DNA of 63,983 nucleotides, the filler included, from Stramenopiles sp. TOSAG23-3 (taxonomy: Eukaryota): assembly GCA_900128585.1 (NCBI GenBank). It is 7 parts of 7 records of this genome, joined end to end, with 100 filler letters (N's around TTAATTAATTAA, not from the genome) between each part and the next. Parts side by side here need not be neighbours in the genome. Positions count along the whole stretch, not along the records: positions 29,163 to 43,618 come from LT642566.1; 6 more parts are not named here. One strand, written 5' to 3'. How positions within the stretch are numbered: position 1 is the stretch's first letter; every line of letters starts with the position of its first letter. This document shows positions 14,483-62,146 of this stretch, piece by piece. The position numbers and the translations under genes are program-made. Below the pieces are notes generated by a model, which saw only the letters and a list, made by a program, of their open reading frames with translations, was not told the origin of the DNA and did no database searches.

Positions 14483-14582
14483 NNNNNNNNNNNNNNNNNN
14501 NNNNNNNNNNNNNNNNNNNNNNNNNNTTAATTAATTAANNNNNNNNNNNNNNNNNNNNNNNNNNNNNNNNNNNNNNNNNNNN
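14483..14582. other. Artificial contig linker (N44-TTAATTAATTAA-N44)
   Basis: Six-frame-stop linker flanked by Ns; the same linker recurs five more times. Confidence 0.98.
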
Positions 14583-25569: not shown

Positions 25570-27798
25570 TTAGCTCACATGTTGAAGTTGCTTCGCCTTC
25601 GAAATTAATGTGTTATAATAGTCCAGCAGGTCGTTATCACCATTTTGACTTAAAGCCACGGCCTTCTCACTATCGTCTGGATTCAAATTTTTACGATTTA
25701 CGTCTTGGTCTTGTGCGATCGGAGTGTCAACACTTGCAACCAGTTCTTTATCTGTATATCCTTTGGTTCTTTCGCTTACTCTCTTTGCGGTTGTCGTTCT
25801 TTCTTGGTGCAAACTTCGTGAAGTTTGACTATTAAGATTTAGAGAGAAACTTTGTTTAACACGTTTAATAATTGCTGTTACATTCATAACAAAAACTGTT
25901 GAATTTTCATCAGTATTTGACTTCAGCACTAGTGACCATTCACGCAATTTCGGGATCAAGTTTGCCACAGAAAAGTATTTATGACACGTGTAGTCACGAC
26001 TCATTTTTTCCAAAAGCATGCTTAATGCTTGTACAACTTCAATATTTGGCATGTTTAAGATTGCATCGTGCACTAATTTCCCCGGCAAAGTAGTGAACAA
26101 GTGCGCACACTGGCGAAAAAAAGATTCACAGCCACATTGATGCTTTAATAATTTTAGGTGTGCTCCATCTTGAACAATTGTTAACAAAATACTGACAGCG
26201 ATTCTTATAAGTCTACGGTGACCCTTGATCTTGAATGTTTGGCTATTTAAAATTGGCATTAAAATGCTCATACCGTCCTTATTCGCGAATTCAAAACGAC
26301 CCAAATCTGTTTTGACACATTCTAAAAGAGCTTCAAGTGCTGCACCAATATACTCTACTCGGCGTGTTAACTTCAGTACTAGACATGATGCAACAGAAGC
26401 GAGTTTAATATCATTTGATAACAGGGGGCTGGTGGCAAATACCACAATAGAAGGATTGTTCAAAAACTGAAAACTTTCTTGGTGTTCTAGTCTGGCAGTG
26501 GGATTTAATCCATGGGGTTTCTTGGGCGTTTTGTTCGCATAGTAGGTGTTCGAAAGGCCTAATATGGCCTGCACCAAATGTTGGCATCCTGGTACGCTGG
26601 ATAACGTTGAGACGTGTGAGATGCCGTCATCGTGCGTTTCGCAAGACTTCCAGCAGTATTCCAGCAGTGGCATCTGTATGCTAGAAGACTGAGGTCTTAG
26701 CATATCTAGCGTAGCTGCAATACCAGGAAAAACTTTTATACTACAAGCAGCTGAATTTGACGGAATGTTCTCCATTAAAGTGCATATCAGTTGAAGCATG
26801 GAGGCTTGTCGATTTGTTGCAGCGATATGCTTATTATGATTCCCACTACCAAATCTCACCACCATCTTAGGCTGTTCTGCTGCTGAAGTTTCACCTGCGT
26901 CATTGCCAGTTTTCAGTTTGGGTTTCTCCATCCGCAATTTGTCCCTGGTGGAATTGTTTAAGGACTTGGAGTTAATATGTTTGTTATTTTCAGGGGTTTG
27001 TTGAACGCTTTCTTTTTCTTCTCTCCATTTTAAGATTCTATTTTTTTTCTCGAGTTTTTGAATACGCTCACTAGCGTTGGCCAGCTTGGACAACAAACGT
27101 TTGTTTGCTTGCTCTAGTTTCTCTCTCGCAGATTCAACCTGCTTTTTTTCATTTAAAACAGTAACGTTTTGCTGCTGTAGTGAAAGAAGTTTTTTTTCAG
27201 TTTTTTTCATTCGCCGCAAAGTCTTGGCAAGTTTTTTCATCAATTCTTCAGACATTTCTTGAACATTACATTCAATAGTATGGGATATCTTTGCAGCTTC
27301 ATCTGTTAACAGAACTTCGGCACGATACAAATCTTTTGATAGTTTTGTCTCGTTGAAATCTACTTTCCGTTGCCTTTGCTTGATCAATTGAGCAGTTCTC
27401 GCCAATTCATGGTAAAAATTGAGTGCGTTAGGGAAACTTGGCTGCTGTAGTGGAATGTTCACAAGAATATCATTAAAGCCGGAGAGATCACTAACACCAT
27501 CAATCTCAGGGCCATCGTAATTTTCGGGAACTTCAGGCGGTTTTGTGTTTCTTTCTTTACTTTCTTGGCCCCGTTTTGACTCAGTCAAGAACCTAAACTG
27601 GGTATCGTCCAGTTTGTACCAACCTTCGTCACCATCCTCATATGTAATCATATGCATACATTTGCGAGAATCGAATTTTACAATTTCCCCACGATACCAA
27701 CTTACTACTTTGGGGTCCCCGCTGGAAAGTGTAACATTTTCAGAGCCTCTTTCCCATAAAACTTCAACTTTCCTTCCAACAATTTCCGTTCCGTACAT
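25570..27798 (-). CDS. Tudor-like N-terminus, coiled coil and helical C-terminal domain; function unknown
   Basis: IVGRKVEVLW..WYRGEIVKFD..HMITYEDGD; heptad K/E-rich segment; ORF over 740 aa. Confidence 0.72.
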   Translation of the reverse strand: MYGTEIVGRKVEVLWERGSENVTLSSGDPKVVSWYRGEIVKFDSRKCMHMITYEDGDEGWYKLDDTQFRFLTESKRGQESKERNTKPPEVPENYDGPEIDGVSDLSGFNDILVNIPLQQPSFPNALNFYHELARTAQLIKQRQRKVDFNETKLSKDLYRAEVLLTDEAAKISHTIECNVQEMSEELMKKLAKTLRRMKKTEKKLLSLQQQNVTVLNEKKQVESAREKLEQANKRLLSKLANASERIQKLEKKNRILKWREEKESVQQTPENNKHINSKSLNNSTRDKLRMEKPKLKTGNDAGETSAAEQPKMVVRFGSGNHNKHIAATNRQASMLQLICTLMENIPSNSAACSIKVFPGIAATLDMLRPQSSSIQMPLLEYCWKSCETHDDGISHVSTLSSVPGCQHLVQAILGLSNTYYANKTPKKPHGLNPTARLEHQESFQFLNNPSIVVFATSPLLSNDIKLASVASCLVLKLTRRVEYIGAALEALLECVKTDLGRFEFANKDGMSILMPILNSQTFKIKGHRRLIRIAVSILLTIVQDGAHLKLLKHQCGCESFFRQCAHLFTTLPGKLVHDAILNMPNIEVVQALSMLLEKMSRDYTCHKYFSVANLIPKLREWSLVLKSNTDENSTVFVMNVTAIIKRVKQSFSLNLNSQTSRSLHQERTTTAKRVSERTKGYTDKELVASVDTPIAQDQDVNRKNLNPDDSEKAVALSQNGDNDLLDYYNTLISKAKQLQHVS

Positions 27799-29062
27799 TT
27801 CAGACACGCAATCTTTATCTCAACTCAACGAGGGCAGGCGACAACTCTCTGGTACTACGCTTTGAGGTGGGGGTTCCTATATATTTACTCAGTAGGAGTA
27901 GTTCTGTTAACGTTGTGGTGTGTGTCTGTGTGTGGCTAGTTTACTGCTCTTAAGAATCTTATTCTCACGTTGACGCATTGCTAAGTATCGTCTTTTGTCA
28001 CGGAAATAAAATCTAGAATTTAACCAGACGACTAATTTGATTTACAATCTCTTCTCCTCCTACCTCCTCCTCCTCTTCTCTTCTTCTTCTCTACACTACT
28101 AATAATAATAATATTAATAAATCGTATAACAACTCAACAATCCACGGTATTTTAATATTAATATTAATAAATACCATTGTGTATTGTGTATATATATATA
28201 AAAAAAATTTACACTAATAAAATAATCCATCCACTGAGCAGCAGCAGCAGACAGCAGACAGCAGATCGATCTATTTTCTCGATGATCGATCAATCAAGAA
28301 GAAATTTGAAAGTCCGTCGTTGTTGTGTTGCCATTAAATTATTTATATTTATATACTGTAGGAGGTATTAATATCTAGGAGTAACAGAGTAACAACAGGG
28401 AAAAAATTCACACTAAAGATTAGCTAATTTAAATATTTATCATCCTTTCATATCACATAACATACCGGTACAGTAAAAAGACCACGTTTTCTATTCTCTT
28501 TATTCGCAATTCTTTTATTTTCAATAATAATATAGGAACATATTATATGATTTCAATTCTCAGTCCAGTAATTTAATTCCGCAAGGAATGGAGGTGAGTT
28601 GTTCAATTTTTTTATTAAATTATTATTAAAATTGAGAATCTCAAATTCCATTTTGTTTTAAAGTGTTTTTATATTGTATTTTTATATATATACCCCATCC
28701 ATATCATTTATTAAAAGCAATCCCCGAGAGAAGAAAAAAAAGAAGAACGGAGAGTACGGCCGATAAAAATAATAATAATAAAAAAATAATAATAATAAGA
28801 AGTAGAAAAAACGTGAGATCCACCACATGCAATCCCACCCATACAATCCCAACGGTTTCCATACTTCTTTGGTCGTATTTACTTCGTTTTAATATTATTT
28901 CGCGCACTCCAATTGCATTGTAATTGCATTGTGAACGTCAATTCTGAACATCAATCATCTAATTTGTTTGTTTATATAGAACATATAGTACTACTTATCT
29001 CAGTTCTCGACATAGTATGTGTGCCCTTTTCACTTCTGTAGAGAAAATTATGCGGTTGGCGC

Positions 29063-29162
29063 NNNNNNNNNNNNNNNNNNNNNNNNNNNNNNNNNNNNNN
29101 NNNNNNTTAATTAATTAANNNNNNNNNNNNNNNNNNNNNNNNNNNNNNNNNNNNNNNNNNNN
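29063..29162. other. Artificial contig linker
   Basis: N-TTAATTAATTAA-N, 100 nt. Confidence 0.98.
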
Positions 29163-29163
29163 C

Positions 29164-29952
29164 AAGAAAAAAGGCGCGGAAGTTCTGAAGGGAGAGGTTG
29201 CGAATGTGCGCAATGCATACGAAGAGAAGACGAACGCGCACAGGGTAGACCGCGTCCTTTTGAAAGATGGGCGCACTCTGGCTTGTGACATGTTTTTGGT
29301 CGCCTTGGGGCCATGGTCTGTGCTTGCAGAAGACTGGTTTGCGGATACCTCATCCCTGTCCGTGCCAATGGAAGGCATAAAGAGCAGCTCGATCGTTCTG
29401 AACCACCCGCCAGGGTCGATGCAGAAGCCGTTTGCTTTGTTTTGTGGGGAAGATGATCGCTTCAACACACACTTAGAAATTTATCCCAGGCCGGATGGGA
29501 GTATATACATGTGCGGGTTAGGGGGCAGTGAGCATTGTCCGAAAAATCGAATTATTGAACTTACCCCTGAAATGGTAGTTCCCGATGCCAAAAGGGTAAA
29601 AGCTGCCGTTCGCTGTTTCCAAACGTACTCCACTTCCCTTGGGAAAGGTGCGCCAGACCTTACTGCAGCATGCATGCGACCGGCCGTGTCCGATGGGTAT
29701 CCAATGATGGGAAGGATTCCGAACTACAGCAATGCATTTATTGGTTGTGGGCACAACTGCTGGGGGATCCTCTGGGGGCCCATTTCTGGGTTGGCGCTGT
29801 CTGAGTTGATAATTGACGGGAAATCAACAACTGTAGCTTTAAAACACTTTGACCCTGGGCGTTTCAAACGAAAAGATAGTAATAATAGAACGAAAACAAA
29901 AAAACGAGGCCGGAAGGATCAAAATGGAAACGAGGTGGGTGAACAATGGTGA
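29164..29952 (+). CDS. FAD-dependent oxidoreductase, DAO family (Tda3-like), 5'-truncated
   Basis: LVALGPWS, EIYPRPDG, ACMRP..DGYPMMG, GHNCWGILWGPISG. Confidence 0.88.
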   Translation, partial: KKKGAEVLKGEVANVRNAYEEKTNAHRVDRVLLKDGRTLACDMFLVALGPWSVLAEDWFADTSSLSVPMEGIKSSSIVLNHPPGSMQKPFALFCGEDDRFNTHLEIYPRPDGSIYMCGLGGSEHCPKNRIIELTPEMVVPDAKRVKAAVRCFQTYSTSLGKGAPDLTAACMRPAVSDGYPMMGRIPNYSNAFIGCGHNCWGILWGPISGLALSELIIDGKSTTVALKHFDPGRFKRKDSNNRTKTKKRGRKDQNGNEVGEQW

Positions 29953-30495
29953 GCACGAAAGAAGATTTATGTATATATATATAGGGTATTAATATTTACA
30001 ATACATATATTGACAAATAAATACCATAATACGATGAGGACAGACGACATGGGAAAAACTGTGAATTGGAAAGAGAAAGTGGGGGGGGGATCGATCGGCT
30101 TGCTTGTTGATTCTATTTGCAGCATAGACAAGACAGCTTTACTAGTTTATTAAAATTATTATATTTATATTTAAACTGTATTATAATTGTATATTATATA
30201 AATGTATAAAAGCTTATTATATGATGGTATAAGAAGTAAGCTGATGGGATGGATGAAAAACAAGGGCGGCCTCCTCTTATTATTGTATTACATAATTTAA
30301 ATAGTCGTCTAATAATAACACCGGTAGGGCGATTCGATGCCTGAACGAATATGACCGATCTGTCCCCACGCCAAGAAAAAGTGTTCACAGAAAGAAAGGG
30401 GTTGGTGTGCGAGCAGTAATTTCAAAACTGGGCGAGTTTATTGCATTGTTGTGTTGCAACCTTTTCTTACCACAACGATAACGGTTCGAAGAATT

Positions 30496-31977
30496 ATGGG
30501 CCTGTCAAAATTTTACGGTGTGTTGCTCTGTTTGTTTCTTGCTTCAGATAGCTTCCGTGCGGTTGTTTCTGGCCAAGAGCTTAAGACAAATATTTTCACC
30601 AAGTTTTTGAAGAAAACCCCCACTTTTTTGAAGAAAGATGCGGATGTTGTTCGGTCGGTAGAGACAAAGCACAAAGGGGTAAAACTGCAGCCGACCTGCC
30701 AGATGACTTTCAGGGAGCAGATCTTCGACGGGGTGTGCACCACTCAGAAGCACTGCCGCCTCTCGGTCCTGGACAGTGACGGGTCTGCGCGGGATGCTGG
30801 CGGATTTTACAAGAGAGGGTACAAATCCCTCACTCAGAAGACGTGCGGAACGCAGGGTTCAGAACGGTTAGATTGTTGCGCAGAGATTCAGTGCATGAAA
30901 GGACACGGGCACTGCATTAATCCGCACGGTCCCAACGCGATAAAGTGCGGTGAGCAAGTCGTCAGTGGGCACTGCCCCGGGGCGACGATATGTTGCCCGT
31001 TTGACGACGACTCGTTCGGGGACTACCAAAAGAAAGAGTTCAAGGAACACAAGCCTTGCCTAGTCACGGAGGTGGGCGGGGCGGGGGGTGTGTGCCGACA
31101 TTGGAAGACTGGGGACTGCACCACAGGGTGGGAAAGCGGCCACTGCGACGGGGCCGATAGGTGCTGCCCCAACGCAATAGATAGCGCCCAGAAATGGAAA
31201 GCAGAGCAAGTGCAGAAAGAGTGCGACCTTGTCGGACCGGCTGCAAAGCATTTAAACCTAGACATCACGATGCTCTTAGCGTTTAAAAAGGTAGAGAGTG
31301 GGGGTGCACCCGGCGCCGTCCGCTTCGAATGCCACCTATGGAAGCGAGACAAGAAAGTTTCGGCGGCAAACAAGAAAAAGATGCCGTGCTCCATAATGCC
31401 CGGGGATAGTTTTTCCAAGGTTGCCTCGGAATCCAGCTCGAACGCGTTCATGAAAGCGTACAATTTCGACAAAGCAGGTGCCATCCGTGCGACATCTTTC
31501 GGGCTTTTTCAAGTCATGGGCGCGTACCTTCTACGCCTCGAATCAAACCCGCAAAAGGCGCTAGACCTTTTTCGGAAACACAGCAAAGAGGTCAGCATGA
31601 AACTGCTTGCCCTTTGGTTCAAGGACCCCTCTTGGGGCGCCATCGCTGCCAAGCGGGCGAGAAAAATAAAGAGCTCTTCCGCGAAGCACATAGACGACTG
31701 GAAATTCGTCGTGCGAAAGTACAATGGCCCCGGCCAAGTGAATTATTACACCCAAAAGCTTAGAGAAGCGTACAATTTGTACGACGGTAGTTGCCCCGAC
31801 GCGTCAACGTACAGCACCGATGATTTTCTTCGTGGTGTTGAAACGGTTACCGCAAGCGTGAACCTCCGTACGGAAGATCTCATGCGAAACCGTCGCGGGG
31901 GGTTGTTCCAGGAATTCTTGCACAGAAATACAAAGATGTTGCTGGTCGATTCCAGAAACCATGAGATGGAAGCATAA
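30496..31977 (+). CDS. Secreted N-acetylmuramidase (DUF3380/phage endolysin-like) with three six-Cys repeats
   Basis: Signal peptide; three C..GxC..C..C..CC units; AFKKVESGG, VRFECHLW, ATSFGLFQVMG, FVVRKYNGPG. Confidence 0.82.
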   Translation: MGLSKFYGVLLCLFLASDSFRAVVSGQELKTNIFTKFLKKTPTFLKKDADVVRSVETKHKGVKLQPTCQMTFREQIFDGVCTTQKHCRLSVLDSDGSARDAGGFYKRGYKSLTQKTCGTQGSERLDCCAEIQCMKGHGHCINPHGPNAIKCGEQVVSGHCPGATICCPFDDDSFGDYQKKEFKEHKPCLVTEVGGAGGVCRHWKTGDCTTGWESGHCDGADRCCPNAIDSAQKWKAEQVQKECDLVGPAAKHLNLDITMLLAFKKVESGGAPGAVRFECHLWKRDKKVSAANKKKMPCSIMPGDSFSKVASESSSNAFMKAYNFDKAGAIRATSFGLFQVMGAYLLRLESNPQKALDLFRKHSKEVSMKLLALWFKDPSWGAIAAKRARKIKSSSAKHIDDWKFVVRKYNGPGQVNYYTQKLREAYNLYDGSCPDASTYSTDDFLRGVETVTASVNLRTEDLMRNRRGGLFQEFLHRNTKMLLVDSRNHEMEA

Positions 31978-32698
31978 ATCTGATTTTTTTGTAACCTAAA
32001 ACTACTACGAATGAACAAACAAACACCGACCATTATTGTAACATTCGCGTATTTAAACTATTCTATATCTAAACTATATAGTTGTTATTCAACAAACGAC
32101 TTCAATAATAGTCTTCTTCTAACAAACAACAACACAACATCATAATATCGTCGTTTGATAGACGATCAAAATTGAATGTTGTGAATTTTATAATACTATA
32201 GTATCGCTATATAAATAATACAATACATATATGAATAATAAGAAGCTTCTTTTTTTATTTTTTATATTTTATATTTGATCATCGATCGTGACACTACGTC
32301 GTACTACATTCTAAATACATATTACATTATCTTGTCGTCTTGTATTACATTAATACATTGAATAGTGTAACAAACTAAAATTCCAACCAAGGCACTTTAC
32401 TAAAAAAACAACTGGAAGTAGTTATAGAACTTGGTATTAAAAAACTGGTCTGGATGGTGGTCGGTTGATCGATGATTGCATTGATGATTGTATTATTTAT
32501 TAATTCATTCTCTCCTTAGTTAACGACCTAAACAATTGGAAAATTAATAATCGAAAGTATTTCATAGTTGAAGTTGGTGTATATTCAATTGTTCTCAACC
32601 TTATCTTTTTGTTCTTGTGTTTTGTGAGAAGGGTTTCCTTTGTTCGTGATCCCTCTGCTCGATTGTGCACAACGTCCACCCGTGCGTGGGGAACAATA

Positions 32699-33604
32699 AT
32701 GGGGCGAAATGGCAGTGTCGGTAAAGACTCCGCCCTGGAGGCATTGTATCAGGTTCAAAAGCGTCGTGGGTGGAAAGAAAGGCCTAGGCCGTCACAACCG
32801 AACTTTTCGAGCGTCATAACGGCAATAGATCTGTGGAAGGGAAAGTCCTACTGGGCCATTAATAAGCTCTCTTCCTCGCCACGGAAAAAGACCAGGGACG
32901 CACTGCTGCACACCGTGTCTGCCTGGTTGAACCGAAGAAAGAAGCGTGGGGGGCCGAGTAAGTTTGTCGAAGCAGGCCTGGCAAAACGGTTTGAAGAGGA
33001 AATCATGCGGGCGGGTGATGCTGAAATAGCTGGGGCAAAGTGCAACAGCGCGACGTGTTCGGCGGGAGGAAAGCCTCGTTGCTCCGCGAAAAAGGAGTCG
33101 TCAGTCCCCACGTCAAAACCCTCCGAGAAGAAATACCTGAACGCCACGCAATGTCCCGTTTTGCACACTTGCCCTGAGGCCGGTGTCCACGTAGATTTTA
33201 TGGTGGATGGAACTCTTGAGTGCAAGCACCGTGCAACGTCGCGAAAATGCTGCTACGACAGTCAGGACCACGTCCATGTTGGAAATTTGGCAATGTTGGA
33301 TAGTTCGGAATGGGAGCAATGGGGGGAATTAGTGCAGGGCTTGACCAACCACGGGGGGCTAGCTGTTCAAGAGGGCGAACACAAACAAGGCCATGAACAC
33401 GCACAAAGCTGTGGGCATCGTGCCGTATTGCACAAGTGCCCCGAAGAAGGGCCGCATTTGGACTTTATAGTAGATGGAGAAATCCAATGTCGGCATCGGT
33501 CAAACTCTCTAACGTGCTGCGATGACACCCATGTAGTCGTCGAGAACATGAACGAAATAGAGCAAACGGAGTGGGACAACCTGATAAAACTATTGGGAGA
33601 GTAG
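32699..33604 (+). CDS. Unknown protein: basic N-terminus and two His/Cys-rich repeats
   Basis: VLHTCPEAGVHVDFMVDGTLECKHR..CC and VLHKCPEEGPHLDFIVDGEIQCRHR..CC; HEHAQSCGH linker; GC-rich coding-like block. Confidence 0.8.
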   Translation: MGRNGSVGKDSALEALYQVQKRRGWKERPRPSQPNFSSVITAIDLWKGKSYWAINKLSSSPRKKTRDALLHTVSAWLNRRKKRGGPSKFVEAGLAKRFEEEIMRAGDAEIAGAKCNSATCSAGGKPRCSAKKESSVPTSKPSEKKYLNATQCPVLHTCPEAGVHVDFMVDGTLECKHRATSRKCCYDSQDHVHVGNLAMLDSSEWEQWGELVQGLTNHGGLAVQEGEHKQGHEHAQSCGHRAVLHKCPEEGPHLDFIVDGEIQCRHRSNSLTCCDDTHVVVENMNEIEQTEWDNLIKLLGE

Positions 33605-33785
33605 AAGGCCACTTTAGTGAGTCCTTCGTAGAGAGGGCAGGGGAGGAAGAGAGTGCTTGCGTTTGTGTCGTGTCATGTTTTTAATTTATTTTTGCATTGT
33701 GATTTAAACAATATATACTTTTTTTTGTGTGTGTGTGTTTTTTTTTTTACGTTAATTCACTTTTGTCTTGTTAAACAAATTACTT

Positions 33786-35220
33786 ATTAAGCCGCTGCTT
33801 GGGAAATCGCACAAGGATTGAGTCACCTATGAGTGAGATATCGGATGAGGAAGTTGATTACGGTTCATTTGCAAGCATTGCCAATCCAGATACCGATTCG
33901 GATTTTCAGTTTTCAGTTCGCAGTATATTCAGTTCGCAGTACATTGTTTTTAAAAAAAATACTTAAATAACAGCCAATTTTCTTGCTTTTTTTTAATTAA
34001 AAAAATAGAACAGCCAATATTGTTTTTGTTGTAACAACGTGTTGTCAATCCAAATACCCGATTCGGATAAAATGCATGAGTACATCGTGATAGTCTAAAC
34101 TACTTTGTAAGTGACAAGGGTGTATTGATTTTAGTAAAATCACAGGAGCAGAGATAAATCCGCAGTATGCGAATGAACGTAAACCTTTAATGGACAAAAG
34201 GAGCAGATTCACTTTTTCGTGTTGTACAAGAAGAAGATAAATTTTAATTAATCTGATTCATTTACTAGTGAGCCATCGGATGAGGAAGTTGACTACGGGT
34301 CTTTTGCCATCGACGCAAATCCACCTACCGATTCGGACCACGCGTGGAGTACATCTGAGCATGATAATCAAGACTAAATAACAACGGTATATTGATTAGT
34401 AAATCGACAAAAGAAGAGATAAGTTCGCCGTACATGAAGGAACGTAACATTTAATGGACGAAAGGAGCAGATTCGTTTTCGCGGTACATGAGGAAGATAA
34501 ATTTTAATTAACACTTTATAAATCACAGCCAGTTTTTTGTTTTTTTATAAGTAAAAAAGGATTGAGTCGTCTATGAGTGAGATATCCGGCGAGGAAGTTG
34601 ATTATGGGTCATTTGGAAGCATTGCTAATCCATCTACCGATTCAGATCATGCAAGAGCAAAGATAAGTTCGCAGTACACGAAGGAATGTAAACCTCGAAT
34701 GTCTAAATCTAGAGTTCAGTTCGCAGTACATTAATTTTAGCTTCCTCATACCCTAAGTAAAAAATGTTTCAACAGATGCTTTAATATATATAGTATGTAT
34801 GGATGGATGCTTTAATATATATATATGATAGTGCTTTTTTAGAAAAAAATAAATTACATAGGCATAGTATGTTTTAAGACTCTCATTTTAAATCAATTAC
34901 TATTTCAGTTCCAACCCAAGTGCTTTCTTTAATACATTCGTACCTCGAAATGGCACAAGTTACCTGTACAGGGTACAGGTAGTTAACTATATTTTGACCA
35001 CGCATGGAGTGTACATCTGAGCATGATAATCAAGACTAAATGACAACAGAATTTTGATTTGTAAATCCACAAGGAGTAGAGATAAGTGCGCCGTACATGA
35101 AGTAACGTAAACCTTTAATATGGACGAAAGGAGAAGATTCATTTTGGCACGAGAAAGCTACATTTTTTATTACTTAAATAACAGCCAATTTTTTGTTTGT
35201 AAATATATAACAGCCAATAT
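33786..35220 (+). repeat. Cluster of 4-5 partial copies of a degenerate dispersed element (likely TE or gene relic)
   Basis: Repeated blocks gaggaagttgaytayggktcwttt, gagataa.t.cgc.gta, atggac.aaaggagcagattc, acttaaataacagccaattt. Confidence 0.85.
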
Positions 35221-35294
35221 TTTCTTTTTATTTTGTAGTTTGCACCAATTTCCTTCCTTTAAAATTCGCCATATATTTTTGACCAGTTAACTGC

Positions 35295-36800
35295 TTAGTG
35301 CCCGTGTCCTGCGTGCGGATCGGCGGCTGCACCACCTTCATCGGCGGCCGGCATGTTCTCGCAGTGCTTGTGGAACGTGAGAATTATGGCAATTATCGCG
35401 AACCCCAACATAACTATCGCAAAGTGCAGAAGCCGGTCTTTCTTCTTGACCGTCAATAACTTTGGCATGCACTCTACGCAACCGATCCAGACATATGCAC
35501 CCGCAGCGAAAGCCAAGATGAAGCATTTAAGTTCCTTGCCCACCGGAGCGGAAGCTGCAATAGCGCCACCGATCATGCAGGACAGGCCCGAAAGAAAATT
35601 CATCAGCAGCGCCTCGAACGTGGACATTTTTCCCGCTCCCCGGAGAACCAAAAAGTCTGCCCATTCTTGCGGAAGCTCGTGCGCCACGGCACCTGCCATG
35701 ACAGCCCATCCCATGGCAGCATCGCAGGTCGTAAAGGCTATCATAACGGCGAGACCGTCCGCAAAATTATGCAGAAAGTCACCCACCAACACGGGCCCAA
35801 CGACGGTACCCCAGTTTTTGGGGCGAATAGCAAACTTGCTGTCCGGCGTCTTGTCATTCGTCTGTGGCAAATCGGTACTTTTCCCGACTTTCGCACGGAG
35901 CTGGTTCACATTGCCCATCTCGATCTCCTTGATCTCCTTGGCCGTCCCGACTTCATTGAACTGGACGCCAAATGCCCAATTAATCCCCAAATTAACGATA
36001 AAACCGAGGAAAAGAGCGATGCCGACGAAAAAGTTGTTCGAATTTTCGTTCCCGTACCCCCAGGCGCCGTCGATGATTCGTACACTCTCTGGAATGATGA
36101 TCAGAACGCTTACCGAGAGGAGTGCCCCGCACGCGAAAGCGGCGGACGTCGTTATCAAGAATTCGGGATTTCCGGACGATTTAATGCATGGAAGCGTCGC
36201 AACGATGCCTATTAGTGTGCAAAATGACACGATTAGGCACGCCACAACTCCAAGGCCCACGTTGGACTTTCCATGGTCATCATGGTGCCCACCACTCTTT
36301 TTCCCAGGCTCTGTCGCTGTCGCTTCGTAGGCCTTCCCTGAGGCGTCCAGCAGTTCAAAATCAAACTCGCTCGTTAAATGTTGAAAGAAGAACGCGTGGG
36401 CGGAATCTGACGCTACTGTGAACCTGTATGCTGATCGTGGCGTCGTCTGGTCGAACTTGAGCGAGTACAACGTGTTCGTGGCGAGTTTCCCTGAAAATCG
36501 GTTTCCAAGCACTTCGGTGGCGCTTCCATCCCACAGCGTCTCCGCGGCGGCCTCGACCGTCTCGATCCCGTCTGTGGTTTTGGCAGTTGTAGTTACGTAC
36601 GAAAAGTTGCAGATGGCATCCGCGTATTTTCCACCCTTTTTAGAAAAGTAAATGGTGTAATTTCCTGTCTCGGCGCTTTCGTGCAGGTCGTAGACCGCTG
36701 CAAACTCCCATTTATGCGAGGACCCCCCCAGGGCGGGTTGCAACATGAGGACGGTTGCGAGCACGCACGCAAGGACCCCAATTCTGACGGTTGGCTTCAT
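35295..36800 (-). CDS. ZIP (LIV-1-like) metal transporter with signal peptide and extracellular domain
   Basis: GDFLHNFADGL, HELPQEWADF; His patches GGHHDDHG and PHAGHGH. Confidence 0.92.
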   Translation of the reverse strand: MKPTVRIGVLACVLATVLMLQPALGGSSHKWEFAAVYDLHESAETGNYTIYFSKKGGKYADAICNFSYVTTTAKTTDGIETVEAAAETLWDGSATEVLGNRFSGKLATNTLYSLKFDQTTPRSAYRFTVASDSAHAFFFQHLTSEFDFELLDASGKAYEATATEPGKKSGGHHDDHGKSNVGLGVVACLIVSFCTLIGIVATLPCIKSSGNPEFLITTSAAFACGALLSVSVLIIIPESVRIIDGAWGYGNENSNNFFVGIALFLGFIVNLGINWAFGVQFNEVGTAKEIKEIEMGNVNQLRAKVGKSTDLPQTNDKTPDSKFAIRPKNWGTVVGPVLVGDFLHNFADGLAVMIAFTTCDAAMGWAVMAGAVAHELPQEWADFLVLRGAGKMSTFEALLMNFLSGLSCMIGGAIAASAPVGKELKCFILAFAAGAYVWIGCVECMPKLLTVKKKDRLLHFAIVMLGFAIIAIILTFHKHCENMPAADEGGAAADPHAGHGH

Positions 36801-37762
36801 TACTTTTGTTTTATGCGGTGTGGTGGGTTGGTGTGATAATGAAAGGGAAAAAAGAGTATTTATATCTGTCTCTGTTTATTTGTTTGTATCTGCTTTAAAC
36901 TTTCTCTATCACTTTTTCAGTGAGATTGAAATCTACTATGTTTGGTTTTGTTTATATAAATACTACTGTCGTAACAACAAAACTGCCACACAACACACCA
37001 CAAACAAAAAACAACCACACAACGAACGAAGAAGAAAGAAAAAAACAAACAACTATCATCAAAAAAAACAATCTTCCGGTAGTACCTGGTATGGTACTAC
37101 CATTATGACACAGCATTGTTTTATTTTTAAAATTATTTTTCGCAATATAAAACAACAACAAAAAACTGTACGATGTTGTACGATATAGAAGATAGAAGAA
37201 GAAATAAATAATTTTATTTTTTTAAATGAGAAGGAGATGAGAAAGTTTTCTTGTTTTTTAGTATTTATCTTTTTTTATATTAACAATATAATAAATTATA
37301 CTTTTTTTTTAATTGTTATCCAATATAAATATCATTTTATAATTAATTAAGTAATAAAAACTCCTTAATCTAATAATATTTTTTAAATAAGGAATTATAT
37401 TTTTATGAAATTGATTTAGTCGTTCTTCGAGTATATTTTTGGACTCTCACAGCCTCGATTTATTTATGCTATGATGATCTATTGATTGTTGTTTTCTTTC
37501 AATTGTTTATAAGTCCACGAAAGTGATAAACTAATTCCTTTGGTAATTGTAGCCTTAATTTATTTATCCGCTTTATGATAGGGGAATGTTAGTAATATAA
37601 TTTGTATACTTTATAGTAGGGAATCTCAATCATCATCATCGTCTCAATTCCAATTTTCTTTCGTCGTGAGATAAAATATTATACAAGTAGAAAAGATTTG
37701 GTCCAATATTTTAGAAAAATTTCATATTGTCTTAACTTTCAAACTTTGCAATTTCTTTCAAA

Positions 37763-38341
37763 TCATGTTCTACTCAATGCCCCGAGCTGATCCCGTATTT
37801 TGTGCATACCATCTATCAGGGTCCCAAGGCTTTCTTTGCTCAACTCAAAATTTACACTTTTCACCGCGGGCGGTTCCGATGCCGTTCGTGGCTGTTCCTT
37901 CACTTTTAAATCCAACACGACGGTGGGGACGTGCATCCGTGACATCTGCTGGGAGGACACTTTTACGTCTACTTGCCAGTTCATATCGACCATTCGGGGC
38001 CACGATATCATTTTGCGGGAAGCATCGGCCTTCCAATCTAACAAATTACGGCCTACGGTCTTTGCGATTAGCTTCTTCAACTTGTCGTCCAAGCTCGGGT
38101 CGCAGCAGTTATAAATGGCCTGGTAGTCGACTTGCGCGGACGCCGAGTACAACGACTTCGCTATAACATGCCTTGCCGCCTCCAGCACAGCCCTAACTTC
38201 CCCTTGCTTAATCCCAAGCCCATCCGCTACTTTATCGGCAGGCGCGTATGACAGGTCCCCACGGTAATGAAAGGCGTATGCAAACACTTCCTCCAATATG
38301 GTCTTATTTTTTGCGCCCATCAGGGCGGTCAGTGCAGACAT
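37763..38341 (-). CDS. COMM domain protein (COMMD9-like)
   Basis: PRMVDMNWQVDVKVSS..VPTVVLDL..VNFELSKESLGTLIDGMHKIRDQL. Confidence 0.87.
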   Translation of the reverse strand: MSALTALMGAKNKTILEEVFAYAFHYRGDLSYAPADKVADGLGIKQGEVRAVLEAARHVIAKSLYSASAQVDYQAIYNCCDPSLDDKLKKLIAKTVGRNLLDWKADASRKMISWPRMVDMNWQVDVKVSSQQMSRMHVPTVVLDLKVKEQPRTASEPPAVKSVNFELSKESLGTLIDGMHKIRDQLGALSRT

Positions 38342-39004
38342 ACTTTGTACAAAAATTGAATAAAGATGGTGGTGGATGGTAAGTACCGCTGTGTACCAAA
38401 TCGGTTAAAATTGAGTGTGGGACGAAATTATGTACAATCCACAATTAACGAAATCATGGAGATGTTTCTTTTTCATGTCTATCTATACAGATACAAAATT
38501 CATTATTAATTTTTTACGTATCACATTATATATATTATTATATAATAAAATAAAAAAATATTTATTATTATTCTCTTTTATTATTACAGAGAGAAGAAGA
38601 CGACAGAACAGGGAGTGTGATGTGAATGATGAAGTGAGGATGATTATGATACGACGGACGACGGTGCGAGTAATAAATGAAAAAATGAAATATAGACTAC
38701 CTTAATATCATAATATATAGTTATATAATTATAGAACCAAAATATTAAACAGAACGAAATCAGAAAAAAGATTTTATGGCTTTTTTGTTTTAAATATATG
38801 TTAATAGGATAAATATCATTTGTAGGGAAATCCTTATTATTACTTAGTTGTTTATTTCGAGTAGTACAGGACGGGAGGAGGAGGTAGGGAAAAAAGTATA
38901 TGATATTAAAAAGAGACACGTAAATTTTGTTAAAAAATTTTAACTTCTTAGTTAACTAACGAATTATGCACTCAATTCTTTCCAAGAAAGATAACAGGAA
39001 TCGT

Positions 39005-39622
39005 CTAACGGTAACGTTTAAGTTTAAGTACGTTGCGACGTTTCCAGTTTCCACGCCATGAGGAACCTATAATCTTGTTGGCGCGATGTCCCCTCTTTCT
39101 CAATCCACGACCGGAGCGTCCTGCCGACGTCAACCCGCGCATTTCACGGTGCTTGTGTGTTGGGTTGCAGATCCAGTTAACGCGGGCGTCGTTGCGGATG
39201 GCGTTGTGCTGGACATCCACAAGGATAACTTCGAAATATTTCCAGGAACTGTCGCTGTTTACCCAGTAGCTGTTCAATACGCGCAAGTTTCCGCATACTC
39301 GTCCAACACGTTCTTCTGCGATACTACGCAAGTTACGGCGGGCTTTCAATTGGTTGATACCTTGGTGCTTTGGTTTACCGTAAACAATACCTTTGTTGTT
39401 TTGGCGTTTGCGTCCACCGCGGCGTACAGCAACACGGTATACAACGAAGCCTTGCTTAGCTTTGTAACCCAATCGGCGGGCCTTGTCCGGACGCGTTGGC
39501 TTGGTTATGCGTTGGATCTTTTTGCCTTGGCGGTATTCCCAAGCACGAAGACGAAGCAAGTAGCGAAGGACATCACTTTGCTTTTTCTTCCAGATTTCTT
39601 CCAAATATTTGTATGCAGTCAT
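39005..39622 (-). CDS. RPL15: 60S ribosomal protein L15 (eL15)
   Basis: [40 protein letters not shown]. Confidence 0.99.
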
Positions 39623-40479
39623 TGTTAATGATAGATAAGATTTGTTTTTTTGGTGTGTTTATTAATTTATCTTGGGGAACTCTCTCTTCCTTCGGTAAAT
39701 CTTTCTTTGCATCCAACTTCTTTCCGTAACGAACATGGTCACCGTACCGTTGAAAGAAAGGAGGGGGTGGGGGATTCTTTTAACCTTTCTTTATTATATT
39801 ATTATTATATTAAATATGAAGTCAATCGAACTACCACAGGCAGGCACGCAGTATTATTTTTTTATTATTATAGCGAACTAAGTAGGTTTTAGGAATTTAT
39901 TGATAAATATATAATATTTTGTTTTCTCTTACAGAGTATTGATAAAGTAAATAGTATCTATTTAAAAAATGATAATTGTGGAATGGTTAAATTATTCTAC
40001 CTTAATTAATGAAGCGGAGAAATTCTACCACTCAATTTAATCTTCAGAAGAAAAAATAATATAAAAAACCCTATCAAAAAAATAAAGAATAAAAGAAACA
40101 TTACAATGGAAAACAACAGAGAATACGAAACCATTGCAATACTAATATATAACTACAACTCATAGTCTAAATATAAATATAAGTGCAAACAAATGAACCA
40201 GACACCAACCAATCAATTCATCAATACTGTGTGGATGTATATTATTCATCCTATCCTTCATTCATCATCGAACAATAATTTATATAGGAACAATAACATA
40301 CAACTATTTATATATAGTATACTAATGTGTTCCATTTTCCCTACCGAACCATAACATACTCACAGCATTATTAAATTGATTGGTTGTCAATGCATCAATC
40401 GGAATCAATAAGTAAGGAATGTTATGACTATTGCAAATAGTCAGCACGTTTTGATTTACTTCATCCTCATATTAAAAAG

Positions 40480-40558
40480 ATCTTTTAATCTTCTTACCTA
40501 AAAACAAAATATTATTCACGCACATCTATCTCCTTAATTTACAAAGCAGCAATCTCCA
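40480..40558 (+). repeat. 79-nt segment repeated in inverted orientation at contig end 43540-43618
   Basis: atcttttaatcttcttacc...gcagcaatctcca is the exact reverse complement of the contig-terminal bases. Confidence 0.9.
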
Positions 40559-41049
40559 ATGCTATATGTATATACTATTAAAATCGTTCGGAAGTATATG
40601 CTGTCTGTATATAAATATTATGGACTCTACTATTAATATGTACTTTTATGGTCTGTATTATTTCCTATCTTTTACATCCATTATGATTCAGACGCTATCT
40701 GCATATTGTTTTAATATATCTCTTTGCTATGCGTACGTATTCAATCAAACACAAGAAGAAATGGGAAAGTCATCTTTCCCATTTTTCTTTTTTTAAACAT
40801 GAACATAGTCACACCATTATACAAAAGAAAAACAACAAACGAAGAAAGGATGAAACAAAAAAGTATCCTCAGGTGTAAGTGGAATGAACCAGCGATTGAA
40901 TGGCTACTTGGTCCGTATGTAGGAGAGGTAATGGAAGCCTCGATCGTGTAAAGAAGTAATAGAGTCATAAACTTCGGGTGCATACGTTCTTGTAGCCGCA
41001 AAGTATAAAGGAATAAAATTTGTATTACTTTAAAACAACTCGTTTAACC

Positions 41050-41709
41050 ATGGGTCGCCGTCCAGCTCGCTGCTATCGTTACTGCAAAAACAAGCCGTAC
41101 ATCAAATCGCGTTACTTGCGTGGTGTACCAGAATCCAAGATTCGAATCTATGACGTCGGAAACAAGACGGCCAGTGTGGAAGAGTTCTCCCACTCCGTTC
41201 ACTTGTGCTCCGACGAACGTGAACAGCTTTCTTCCAACTGCTTGGAAGCCGCGCGCATTTGCGCCAACAAGTACCTAGTAAAGACTTGCTCCAAGGACGG
41301 TTTCCACATGCGTATCCGCTGCCACCCTTTCCACGTGCTTCGTATCAATAAAATGCTTTCCTGTGCCGGTGCTGATAGACTTCAGACCGGTATGCGTGGT
41401 GCCTTCGGTAAACCCGAAGGTGTTTGCGCCCGCGTTAAGATTGGCCAGCCAATTATTTCTGTACGAACCCACGAGAAGTTTGTGGATAACGCCGTCGAGG
41501 CCTTGCGTCGTTGCAAGTTTAAGTTCGCCGGACGCCAAAAGTTGATTCTGTCGAACAAGTGGGGGTTCACCAAATGGATGCGTGAAGATTACTTGCGAAT
41601 GCGCGAAGAAGGAACCCTTATCCCGGCCGGCAACCTAGCCAAGTACATTCCAGCACACGGGCCACTTCCAGGAGGCCCGGGAACCAAAAACCCGGACTTC
41701 AGAGCATAA
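41050..41709 (+). CDS. RPL10: 60S ribosomal protein L10 (uL16)
   Basis: [42 protein letters not shown]. Confidence 0.99.
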
Positions 41710-42246
41710 GGGCACTGCCCTGCCCGCCACCGCACTTGTTGTGGAACCGAGCTGGAATAAGGGACTGTACCTGGTTGTTCGGTTTTTTGGCAATAATTTA
41801 TACGTATTTCGACGTGAGGAAGAGTTCAGGGGAAGTATAATTTATAGCTAAGCAAAGTAGTAGTGGGCATGTTTTACCTTGTTGGACGCTCAACCGTTTC
41901 TGCGTACATTTTTTACATCTCGAAGAATAAAGACTTCAGATTTATTTTACACACACTCAATTTCACTCTCATGGCCTGGAAGAAGCAACTTGCGCCCAGC
42001 CGCCGCGTGCAATTTGCATTTTCCCTCTGCTGTCTTTTATTTCTCTCCATCCGCGTGCACACTTTGCTTACATCATAGTTCGACTATATCTATCTAATAC
42101 AAATATAATTTGTTTTTTTTTCTTCTATACAAACAATTTATTTTTTACATTACAAGTTTACCCCCCGCTTGCCAACACACGTTGCCGTCCAATGGCAACA
42201 TTGTGGTGGTGGTGGGTGATCCATCTATACCTCCTCGCTTCTAATT

Positions 42247-43407
42247 TTATCGCTGGGCATTGCGAAGCCCAAGGTTTGCCTCTATAAAGTCCATCGCCTC
42301 TTCCAGACGCTCCCCTAGCAGGGTTCTGTCGAAATTGGGGTCTGCGCCGACACCATCGTTTCTCACTGGCCGTTTGGATGCGACCCTCGAACACCAGTCC
42401 CAAAACCCCATGGACAGGGCCATGGCGCGGTTCCCGTCTTTGCAGTTACGTACCAAGCCATCGATTGCTGAGTCCACCCGCCGTGGGCTTCTGTGGTGTC
42501 GCCCGTACAAGAAGAGCGCCAGGGCCAGCGGGGACTCCAGCTTCAGGTGTGGGTCTGCGGACACGACAGTAGCGTTGTATTTCTCAAACGTTCCCAGGGC
42601 TCTCCCTAAGCGAACATACGCGTTCCGAGCTGCGCACATCGTGTCCCGCAACTGCTTTTGAACCGTTTCGTATGCCGACGGCAACTCCAGGGCTTTCATA
42701 GACTTCCATTCAATCGAGCCTGAGAGGGAGCCCCCCCGGAATGGCGCTTTTTCGGCCTTAAGGTCCACACTGTACGTATCACGAAACGGCAACGGCAGGC
42801 GCCCCCAAAATGCAAGCTCGTTCTTGTGCTGTTTTTTGGCATCCTTTGCCCCAGGAGACGCGCCCGATGCCGGCGCAGGGCTGCGCCCATAAATTTCTAT
42901 CAAAACATATCTTTCAACGATGCAAAATTTGGCTATACAAAAGCACAGGGCAAGTAGTAGCCCGTGCGCGTCATCGTCGCTGTCCTTGTTCTGGCCAACC
43001 AGTTCACGTACCTGGTCGAACGGGTACCCGATTTCGATCAAGTTGTCGCACACAAAATACACGACTGAGTCGAAGTGAAACTTACGGCTGCCGTTCTTCC
43101 CAACGACTAAACGCCACGCCTCGGACAACATTTCCTTTGTGTTTTCCTGCGCCGCAAGCGCCTCGTCCCTACCCAACAATTCCAGCAGCAACAAATCGTG
43201 CAGGGCTTTCCACAGCGCAGGGCACATGTCGGCCTTACCGCAACTAGCACGACGAAACACTTCCGGGTTTACAGATGTTATCCCATGAATATGTAAAACT
43301 TTACAGACAAACTGAACCGCTTCCTTACCCGTTGGTGGTGGTGACGGGGACACTGCCCCCCCGCCTTCTTTTCCACCGGGTGAGCCCTCTATTGCGATTG
43401 AGCTCAT
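42247..43407 (-). CDS. TEDC1-like (tubulin delta/epsilon complex) protein
   Basis: PEVFRRA...PALWKAL, LLLAL.F and PLP segments recall the TEDC1 N-terminal domain (recognised by eye). Confidence 0.6.
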   Translation of the reverse strand: MSSIAIEGSPGGKEGGGAVSPSPPPTGKEAVQFVCKVLHIHGITSVNPEVFRRASCGKADMCPALWKALHDLLLLELLGRDEALAAQENTKEMLSEAWRLVVGKNGSRKFHFDSVVYFVCDNLIEIGYPFDQVRELVGQNKDSDDDAHGLLLALCFCIAKFCIVERYVLIEIYGRSPAPASGASPGAKDAKKQHKNELAFWGRLPLPFRDTYSVDLKAEKAPFRGGSLSGSIEWKSMKALELPSAYETVQKQLRDTMCAARNAYVRLGRALGTFEKYNATVVSADPHLKLESPLALALFLYGRHHRSPRRVDSAIDGLVRNCKDGNRAMALSMGFWDWCSRVASKRPVRNDGVGADPNFDRTLLGERLEEAMDFIEANLGLRNAQR

Positions 43408-43618
43408 CGCGCCGCTCTCCCGCCAAAATATTCAACCCCGGGATGAAATCCTGGCTGTTGACGGCAATCAATGCTGTTGATTTCACAACAAAATCATCTC
43501 TCCATGCGCGCTGTTTCGTATTACCATAATCAATATGCATGGAGATTGCTGCTTTGTAAATTAAGGAGATAGATGTGCGTGAATAATATTTTGTTTTTAG
43601 GTAAGAAGATTAAAAGAT

Positions 43619-43718
43619 NNNNNNNNNNNNNNNNNNNNNNNNNNNNNNNNNNNNNNNNNNNNTTAATTAATTAANNNNNNNNNNNNNNNNNNNNNNNNNN
43701 NNNNNNNNNNNNNNNNNN
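43619..43718. other. Artificial contig linker
   Basis: N-TTAATTAATTAA-N, 100 nt. Confidence 0.98.
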
Positions 43719-58169: not shown

Positions 58170-58269
58170 NNNNNNNNNNNNNNNNNNNNNNNNNNNNNNN
58201 NNNNNNNNNNNNNTTAATTAATTAANNNNNNNNNNNNNNNNNNNNNNNNNNNNNNNNNNNNNNNNNNNN
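58170..58269. other. Artificial contig linker
   Basis: N-TTAATTAATTAA-N, 100 nt. Confidence 0.98.
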
Positions 58270-60108: not shown

Positions 60109-60208
60109 NNNNNNNNNNNNNNNNNNNNNNNNNNNNNNNNNNNNNNNNNNNNTTAATTAATTAANNNNNNNNNNNNNNNNNNNNNNNNNNNNNNNNNNNN
60201 NNNNNNNN
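60109..60208. other. Artificial contig linker
   Basis: N-TTAATTAATTAA-N, 100 nt. Confidence 0.98.
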
Positions 60209-62046: not shown

Positions 62047-62146
62047 NNNNNNNNNNNNNNNNNNNNNNNNNNNNNNNNNNNNNNNNNNNNTTAATTAATT
62101 AANNNNNNNNNNNNNNNNNNNNNNNNNNNNNNNNNNNNNNNNNNNN
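62047..62146. other. Artificial contig linker
   Basis: N-TTAATTAATTAA-N, 100 nt. Confidence 0.98.

Follow-up and report, generated by a model that had tools for sequence, protein, structure and literature searches.

What is a lytic domain of the phage and bacterial type doing among the housekeeping genes of a protist? The question is raised by an open reading frame (ORF) at positions 30496-31977, on the plus strand, of a 63,983-base stretch of DNA (hereafter the window) from Stramenopiles sp. TOSAG23-3 (assembly GCA_900128585.1). The frame runs open from ATG to TAA without introns and encodes a protein of 493 amino acids (P0001). An earlier note, made from the sequence alone, had proposed a phage-endolysin-type muramidase domesticated as a secreted eukaryotic enzyme, horizontally acquired and used to digest bacterial prey. 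The analysis reported here leads to a related answer: this is probably a nuclear gene of a marine stramenopile-like protist, encoding a peptidoglycan hydrolase of the secretory pathway that was acquired horizontally and is probably directed against bacteria.

The family of the enzyme is given by its profile match. Amino acids 259-429 match PF11860 (Muramidase, or DUF3380) in Pfam at E 2.7e-12 and with 47.8 bits, the gathering score being 22.3, and cover profile positions 4-174 of 175 (171 positions), which is far beyond chance and confirms the assignment that the earlier note had wished to see checked by a hidden Markov model (HMM) search. Two endolysin families of PHROG, 2860 and 1224, also match here, and among entries of the Protein Data Bank (PDB) 7q4s is found by the single protein sequence, and 7q4s, 7rum and 5nm7 by a profile of the eukaryotic homologues. 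The motifs on which the family had first been recognised are all in place in the translation: VESGG with its Glu at residue 267 (codon GAG from nucleotide 31294), RFECH at residues 276-280, SFGLFQVMG at 334-342 and YNGPG at 409-413.

The residues that matter for catalysis are intact. E267, E278, C279, H280 and Y418 are invariant in all eight sequences of alignment A1, which comprises the muramidase and seven full-length eukaryote-type homologues. Their counterparts in characterised endolysins (Table 1) are of known importance from two studies: the E101A mutant of AP3gp15 lost 99.4% of its activity (PMC5674055), and E29A and E46A mutants of Pae87 lost most of their muralytic activity, Glu46 being the second catalytic Glu, and His48 and Tyr174 conserved residues of the cleft (PMC8972805). 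The protein is thus a member of the family with a complete set of catalytic residues, and muramidase activity on peptidoglycan is predicted from its sequence. An AlphaFold2 model built on the eight-row alignment has a mean pLDDT of 62.9 and reaches 70-93 over the muramidase domain. Chains of 7rum, 7q4s, 7q4t and 5nm7 make up its top seven Foldseek matches in the PDB (probability 1.00, TM by target 0.51-0.64), and the eighth match falls to E 0.6, so that the predicted fold matches that of the solved PF11860 endolysins only; the lysozyme-like fold, whose absence would have spoken against the earlier claim, is present in the model. The domain is strongly basic (pI 10.0) and contains a clade-specific loop insertion at residues 390-400.

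Between the N-terminus and this domain the protein departs from what is familiar. Its first residues, MGLSKFYGVLLCLFLAS, include a hydrophobic core with a maximum 12-residue Kyte-Doolittle score of 2.23 starting at residue 6, and such an N-terminus is present in 8/8 eukaryote-type sequences, none of which has a later window resembling a transmembrane (TM) segment. The signal peptide proposed in the earlier note stands to this extent, and secretion itself is a prediction from the sequence. Residues 27-62, variable in length and sequence in alignment A1 and modelled at pLDDT below 50, are followed by a feature absent from the earlier note, namely three modules of six cysteines each (residues 63-227). 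Of these 18 cysteines, 17 are invariant across the eukaryote-type sequences: all six in module 1 (invariant in 8/8), C133, C140, C160, C166 and C167 in module 2, where C151 aligns with a Cys in seven of the eight, and all six in module 3. The first module has no Pfam match and is modelled as beta-rich with low confidence, while pLDDT values are 61-68 for the second and 74-88 for the third. Modules 2 and 3 seem to be tandem duplicates, since both end in CCP and are identical at 9 of 12 residues (75%). With pI values of 6.4 and 5.4, the modules are not cationic.

With four further invariant cysteines (243, 279, 298 and 433) the mature protein, which is basic (pI about 9), has 22 in all; the C-terminal tail is poorly conserved past C433. 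An even number of conserved cysteines, a hydrophobic N-terminus and the lack of any later TM-like segment together point to folding in the secretory pathway, with disulfides expected in the mature protein and secretion as its probable outcome. As both C279 and C298 are common to the nearest non-eukaryotic relatives, we propose that they pair with each other, and a second pair, C243-C433, is proposed to clamp the two ends of the domain.

The Cys-rich region has no Pfam family, no Foldseek match at E 0.001 or better among the 500 rows listed, no usable feature hit in the protein atlas, no stand-alone homologue among 864 candidates in the 90-303 aa length class and no other copy within the window. 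Its most likely function is to hold the enzyme on the bacterial envelope or to stabilise it, which is a guess. Beta-defensins were considered as a possible identity, as modules 2 and 3 also have six cysteines ending in CC. The likeness is weak and structural only: human beta-defensin 4 (5ki9) stands at Foldseek rank 40 (TM by target 0.57 over 45 columns, E 3.1, probability 0.15), the cluster of beta-defensin 126 is the second row in the protein atlas (TM 0.28/0.40), and Pfam Defensin_beta_2 scores E 9.6. With no significant score among these, the lead was set aside as unsupported. In contrast to the defensins, the modules are acidic to neutral, and the spacing between their second and third cysteines is longer than in the defensin consensus.

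Whether such a gene resides in a eukaryotic genome depends first on what lies physically next to it. The window is a concatenation with six joints (Table 1), consisting of at least seven contigs in descending order of length (14482, 14480, 14456, 14451, 1839, 1838 and 1837); claims of linkage across the joints are therefore invalid, and TRAPP, CCDC138 and other genes of the window belong to other contigs without physical linkage to the muramidase gene. The claim that this gene shares a contig with RPL10, RPL15 and COMMD survives the concatenation, because COMMD, RPL15e and RPL10/L16 all lie within 29163-43618, the real contig of the gene, whose start is about 1.3 kb inside the contig and away from the joints. 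Composition agrees with this setting. The gene has a GC content of 0.53 and a GC content at third codon positions (GC3) of 0.63, against GC3 values of 0.52-0.63 in the other genes of the contig; its relative synonymous codon usage (RSCU) correlates with that of the pooled other genes at r 0.56, within the range of its neighbours; and its flanks (GC 0.35 upstream and 0.28 downstream) are as AT-rich as had been claimed, the contig's other intergenic regions having 0.26-0.43. The lack of introns is normal for this genome and uninformative on the age of the transfer, as RPL15e is also a single ORF, of 205 codons and co-linear with its homologues.

Independent sequence data support the contig as well. 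Among 24 listed public runs, 20 contain the stretch or part of it, 14 of them with at least half of the sampled words and six of them RNA runs; 12 studies contributed the 20 runs, whose labels read marine or seawater except in four small ones that bear the organism's name. Contigs of two metagenome DNA runs (X4, X5) and two RNA runs (X18, X20) were aligned to the whole contig. X4 covers 30/30 bins, about 4-9 deep except in one repeat region, and its record 17 (2,461 nt) extends from beyond the left end of the contig through the DAO gene to 30891, 396 nt into the coding sequence (29163-30891 in the window). Record 25 of X5 spans 30245-32094, that is, the whole muramidase gene with both flanks. 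The linkage to flanking genes that the earlier note had asked to see in reads is thus borne out in part, by even cover and by the join to the upstream DAO gene; since no listed record bridges the gene to its downstream neighbours, the independent linkage concerns the upstream side only, and the RPL15/RPL10 side is not bridged.

The gene is transcribed by a eukaryote, as co-linear contigs occur in oligo-dT and polyA libraries of two studies. X18 (oligo-dT) holds a 1,296-nt contig co-linear with 30547-31842, gapless and with two mismatches, and X20 (polyA) has contigs over 30679-31042 and 31061-31941. Neither run has any cover over the intergenic bin 32055-32536, and for this reason transcripts fit better than contaminating DNA. 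The depth of RNA contigs cannot rank genes, and parts of the contig without RNA or X5 cover, such as COMMD in the RNA runs, are not thereby silent or absent. As regards selection, the three variants within the coding sequence in other runs (30861 A>G, 30987 G>T and 31041 C>T) are all synonymous changes at third positions.

As to the host, one conserved protein, taken by its best hits, suggests a stramenopile-like organism. In a search with RPL15e, the four rows that give an organism name among the 120 listed belong to Hondaea fermentalgiana and a Vaucheria (both 79% identical), Ectocarpus fasciculatus (76%) and Fibrocapsa japonica (75%). The NCBI taxonomy places Hondaea and Fibrocapsa among the stramenopiles, where Vaucheria and Ectocarpus belong too. 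Unnamed marine sequences are nearer, at 80-89% identity.

The homologues of the muramidase fall into two kinds. A search of 5.8 billion clustered proteins gave 6,511 candidates, among which eight other proteins reach the threshold of E 0.001; seven are full-length (449-538 aa) and 38-47% identical, and P0009 (373 aa), the C-terminus of which diverges from the family, was left out of alignment A1. All seven combine a hydrophobic N-terminus, three Cys modules and PF11860, and two of the homologue clusters contain eukprot entries. An exhaustive HMMER search of 1.84 billion representatives returned 216 hits at E 0.001 or better, only four of which, the query included, reach E 1e-30; the next best, at 1e-24, has the muramidase domain alone. 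The ten best relatives that are not of the eukaryote type all carry PF11860, preceded in four by an N-terminal PG_binding_1, the classical endolysin architecture, whereas this domain (PF01471) is absent from the N-terminal region of the muramidase protein even at E up to 10.

Beyond this group, the domain belongs to phages and bacteria, as the earlier note had stated, in endolysins, virion lysins and bacterial hydrolases, and its relatives are abundant in both bacterial genomes and viral contigs. An alignment-based scan of bacterial genomes identified 203 of 299 pattern-matched stretches as relatives, a scan of bacterial genomes with the single sequence finding none, and at least 535 relatives are present among 591 pattern-matched stretches of viral contigs. 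Cultured phages yielded one weak hit in 50,697 records (27% identical, E 6e-4), which argues that the donor is not among sequenced phage isolates.

The phylogeny that the earlier note had called for was inferred from domains extracted from 351 HMM hits, of which 295 with near-full cover were kept, giving 280 unique rows. In a FastTree tree of these rows all 24 eukaryote-type rows lie on one side of a single branch (support 100). An IQ-TREE analysis (LG+C20 PMSF) of 61 rows (eight representing the eukaryotes, the 34 rows closest to these by path and 19 taken from across the tree) recovers the eight as one clade with support 100/100, nested in phage and bacterial diversity. This clade falls into a group of 50 rows, set apart from 11 bacterial and prophage rows by a branch with support 100/99, and it joins P0038 and the pair P0138/P0149 with moderate support (92/63). 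The favoured history is a single transfer, long ago, from phage or bacterium to the ancestor of a protist clade, its age being suggested by the identity of only 38-47% among the eight versions. Horizontal acquisition is therefore upheld by the tree, and the more specific claim of a phage donor is plausible but not established, being moderately supported over a bacterial one by the 92/63 branch.

The nearest non-eukaryotic relatives, modular lysins resembling those of phages, bear on this donor. P0138 and P0149 are proteins of about 200 aa with an N-terminal hydrophobic segment, and P0038 is a fragment of P0185 (374 aa), whose source name marks a fraction below 0.22 µm. Outside the eukaryote clade, the Cys of RFEC occurs only in P0038, P0138 and P0149 among the sequences compared; the Cys of PC(T/S) is common to these three and also to P0037 and P0040. 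Together with the YNGPGQ motif, both cysteines link P0038/P0185 and P0138/P0149 to the eukaryote clade; these relatives have about 40% domain identity to the protist protein and lack the Cys-rich modules. A stretch 97% identical to the first 183 residues of P0185 is found on a 37-kb metagenome contig with phage-like genes, fused there to a lysin of the M15-peptidase type (L161 7001-8152), in the neighbourhood of sugar-nucleotide enzymes, an ORF weakly matching a late sigma transcription factor family (E 3.4e-4) and an ORF of more than 1,781 aa. The occurrence of one N-terminal module on swapped lytic domains is typical of the shuffling of phage lysin modules. Scans with P0185 found no relative in IMG/VR and, in metagenome contigs, the N-terminal half alone, fused to the different lysin. 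A further metagenome protein, P0152 (700 aa), has a P0185-like N-terminal module, a PF11860 muramidase and a C-terminal M15/VanY peptidase.

Taken together, the gene is linked to eukaryotic genes, occurs in polyA-type RNA libraries and belongs to a single clade within prokaryotic and viral diversity. On the preferred explanation, the ancestor of a small protist clade would have taken up the PF11860 domain horizontally, long ago, and the gene would then have gained a eukaryotic signal peptide, its usual PG_binding_1 domain being replaced by three six-Cys disulfide modules, two of them tandem duplicates. The protein would enter the endoplasmic reticulum, form about 11 disulfides and then either reach food vacuoles or leave the cell; there Glu267, as the acid, and Glu278, as the second carboxylate, would cleave bacterial peptidoglycan between MurNAc and GlcNAc. 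The Cys modules may stand in for the lost PG_binding_1 as a binding or stabilising part, and digestion of prey would be the likely use.

Several points weigh against this explanation. On the genomic side, none of the metagenome contigs listed for X4 and X5 reaches from the gene to a downstream neighbour or as far as the ribosomal protein genes, the runs with the best DNA cover may be the assembly's own source, and the RNA-library contigs show neither strand nor polyA tail, such libraries being able to hold DNA. On the side of ancestry, the branch that joins the eukaryote clade to its nearest relatives is not strong, the backbone of the tree is unresolved and its root was placed at the midpoint, and most metagenome relatives are of undocumented provenance. 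As regards function, the signal peptide was judged by hydropathy alone; activity, localisation and secretion are sequence-based predictions; the Cys modules are non-cationic and without a known family or significant fold match; and the window gives no indication that the host eats bacteria.

In the alternative that survives best, gene and enzyme are the same and the role is antibacterial defence or competition, as for other antibacterial genes that eukaryotes have acquired horizontally; the protein would be released to the water or act on bacteria living inside or attached to the cell. Defence and digestion are equally compatible with a muramidase that is secretory, basic and rich in disulfides, the window holds no sign of phagotrophy, and the laterally acquired muramidases of Trichomonas are read in PMC12612818 as tools targeting the microbiota. 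In favour of digestion, lysozymes rank with the most highly expressed glycoside hydrolase families in the bacterivorous marine stramenopiles MAST-4 and are interpreted as digestive in PMC8237690. We consider defence the less likely role, worth keeping in view, and the two are not mutually exclusive.

A bolder and still less probable idea concerns the modules themselves, which would be a eukaryotic invention doing the work of engineered 'artilysins': defensin-like or envelope-binding, they would carry the muramidase onto or through the Gram-negative outer membrane for lysis from outside. The domain may then derive from a marine phage, as a virion-associated lysin that was ingested with infected prey.

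The remaining readings are far weaker. That the domain is a non-catalytic binder or sensor of peptidoglycan, a pseudo-enzyme, is compatible with an activity that is predicted only, with the unusual architecture and with the insertion at residues 390-400, and is made very improbable by the invariance of both catalytic Glu, His280 and Tyr418 in all eight sequences despite their 38-47% identity. Just as improbable is a viral identity or route of arrival for the gene, by way of a giant virus or a viral element integrated in the protist genome: enzymes of bacterial type occur in giant viruses, which could have provided the route of the original transfer, whereas the neighbours here are housekeeping genes, and an IMG/VR scan with the eukaryote-type alignment found five loci with the muramidase domain only (26-32% identity) and the Cys-module architecture in none of them, in a scan that finds only sequences sharing its two peptide patterns. 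Weakest of all, and largely refuted, is an assembly artefact or contaminant in which a phage or bacterial gene was misjoined to eukaryotic DNA. In its favour, the assembly is fragmented and the window joins separate contigs of it, the runs that bear the organism's label comprise a mere 7-12 million letters, and independent contigs bridge the upstream side alone. Against it, the gene lies well inside its contig with even cover, is joined to its upstream gene by an independent metagenome contig, resembles its neighbours in codon use and AT-rich flanks, is present in oligo-dT and polyA libraries, has only one weak hit among the phage records, and shares a signal peptide and Cys modules foreign to phage and bacterial relatives with seven divergent homologues.

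Comparison with the solved PF11860 endolysins, namely gp15 of Burkholderia phage AP3 (5nm7), Pae87 of Pseudomonas phage JG004 (7q4s/7q4t) and LysT84 of an E. coli phage (7rum), places the enzyme more closely. The protist protein has the same domain by HMM, the same predicted fold and the same Glu/Glu/His/Tyr cleft residues, at only 21-24% identity. It differs in its signal peptide, in its extra invariant cysteines (243, 279, 298 and 433) and loop insertion, and in having three six-Cys modules where AP3gp15, LysT84 and four of the ten nearest metagenome relatives have PG_binding_1. Its gene stands among housekeeping genes rather than in a phage lysis cassette. Judged from its sequence it would work like the catalytic domain of an endolysin without being one, as its neighbours form no lysis context of holin, spanin or structural genes and its N-terminal signal is of the eukaryotic type. 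Also comparable are protists known to have recruited wall hydrolases: lateral acquisition has given Trichomonas muramidases of GH19 and GH25 as well as NlpC/P60 peptidases (PMC12612818), and the bacterivorous marine stramenopiles MAST-4 have lysozymes of GH22, GH23 and GH24 (PMC8237690). As far as the accessible portions of these two papers go, the kind of event is the same, and the use probably so, a wall hydrolase being fixed and expressed against bacteria; PF11860 is not among the families named there, and the domain architecture differs.

The literature searched, to which supplementary tables did not belong, contains no paper on eukaryotic members of PF11860/DUF3380 or on this architecture. 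In PMC5674055, '1 eukaryote' is counted among 233 homologues of the domain, and a gene like this one may already sit in a supplementary table under another glycoside hydrolase label. The lytic domain family and the horizontal transfer of lysozymes into protists are known; new, as far as our searches of the literature and of sequences go, are the eukaryotic setting and an architecture without counterpart. With lysozyme transfer into protists already established, the finding extends the known picture and does not change it.

Small heterotrophic flagellates are the main grazers of marine bacteria, and the set of enzymes with which they digest prey has mostly been deduced from inventories of glycoside hydrolase families. 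To that set the present gene would add a muramidase family treated in the literature searched as phage and bacterial. It is also a clear example of what can become of a phage lytic domain in a eukaryote, where it would have gained a signal peptide and additional disulfides and exchanged a wall-binding domain for Cys-rich modules. Should the modules indeed bind or breach the bacterial envelope, they would be of interest for engineering lysins against Gram-negative bacteria.

Table 1. Features of the muramidase gene, its product and its contig, in window coordinates.
Feature	Position	Strand	Remarks
Real contig with the gene	29163-43618	.	14,456 bp; bounded by joints
Joints (N runs)	14483-14582, 29063-29162, 43619-43718, 58170-58269, 60109-60208, 62047-62146	.	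each 44 N + TTAATTAATTAA + 44 N
DAO-type FAD oxidoreductase, 3' part	29206-29952		directly upstream neighbour of the muramidase gene
Upstream intergenic region, AT-rich	29953-30495	.	GC 0.35; X4 record 17 runs across
Muramidase coding sequence	30496-31977	+	493 aa plus TAA
Predicted signal peptide	30496-30573	+	aa 1-26; cleavage site approximate; from hydropathy
Lys-rich, poorly conserved linker or possible propeptide	30574-30681	+	aa 27-62; pI 10
Cys-rich module 1	30682-30882	+	aa 63-129; C68, C81, C87, C117, C127, C128
Cys-rich module 2	30883-31005	+	aa 130-170; C133, C140, C151, C160, C166, C167; ends CCP
Cys-rich module 3	31048-31176	+	aa 185-227; C188, C200, C208, C217, C223, C224; ends CCP
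Helical connector with invariant C243	31177-31269	+	aa 228-258; helix 230-253, pLDDT 84-93
PF11860 (DUF3380) N-acetylmuramidase domain	31270-31782	+	aa 259-429
Glu267 (GAG), predicted general acid	31294-31296	+	equivalent to AP3gp15 Glu101 / Pae87 Glu29
Glu278-Cys279-His280	31327-31335	+	Glu278 equivalent to Pae87 Glu46 / AP3gp15 Glu118; His280 to Pae87 His48
Tyr418	31747-31749	+	equivalent to Pae87 cleft residue Tyr174
Variable C-terminal tail and stop	31792-31977	+	aa 433-493, starting at invariant C433; pLDDT 24-39
Downstream intergenic region, AT-rich	31978-32608	.	GC 0.28; bin 32055-32536 with 0 RNA contig cover in X18 and X20
ORF without family	32609-33604	+	downstream of the muramidase gene
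ZIP transporter	35295-36800	minus	same contig as muramidase
COMM-domain protein (COMMD)	37763-38341	minus	same contig as muramidase
RPL15e	39005-39622	minus	same contig as muramidase
RPL10/L16	41020-41709		same contig as muramidase
Further unknown ORF			muramidase contig, listed after RPL10/L16

Elsewhere on the contig, Rfam and tRNA scans found nothing. The ORF directly downstream of the muramidase gene has no Pfam family above the cut-off, AMPK1_CBM coming closest at E 0.005. A Cys/His motif, C-P-x-x-H-x-C-P-E-x-G-x-H-x-D-F-x-V-D-G ... C-C-x-D, occurs twice in this ORF, which is covered in parts by RNA contigs. On another contig of the window, the CCDC138-like ORF at 25570-27807 (minus strand) has a GC3 of 0.37 and a codon-usage correlation of r -0.38 with the other genes, so either its call or frame may be wrong or that contig may come from another genome. 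Finally, the 1.7-kb intergenic region between the downstream ORF and the ZIP gene (33800-35200) contains three copies of a unit of about 80 nt starting ATGAGTGAGATATC, at about 33829, 34270 and 34574, along with repeated 'GATAAGTTCGC.GTACATGAAGGAACGTAAAC' pieces; the depth of metagenome contigs rises there to hundreds to thousands, with many joints, which suggests a dispersed repeat or low-complexity sequence that is widely shared.

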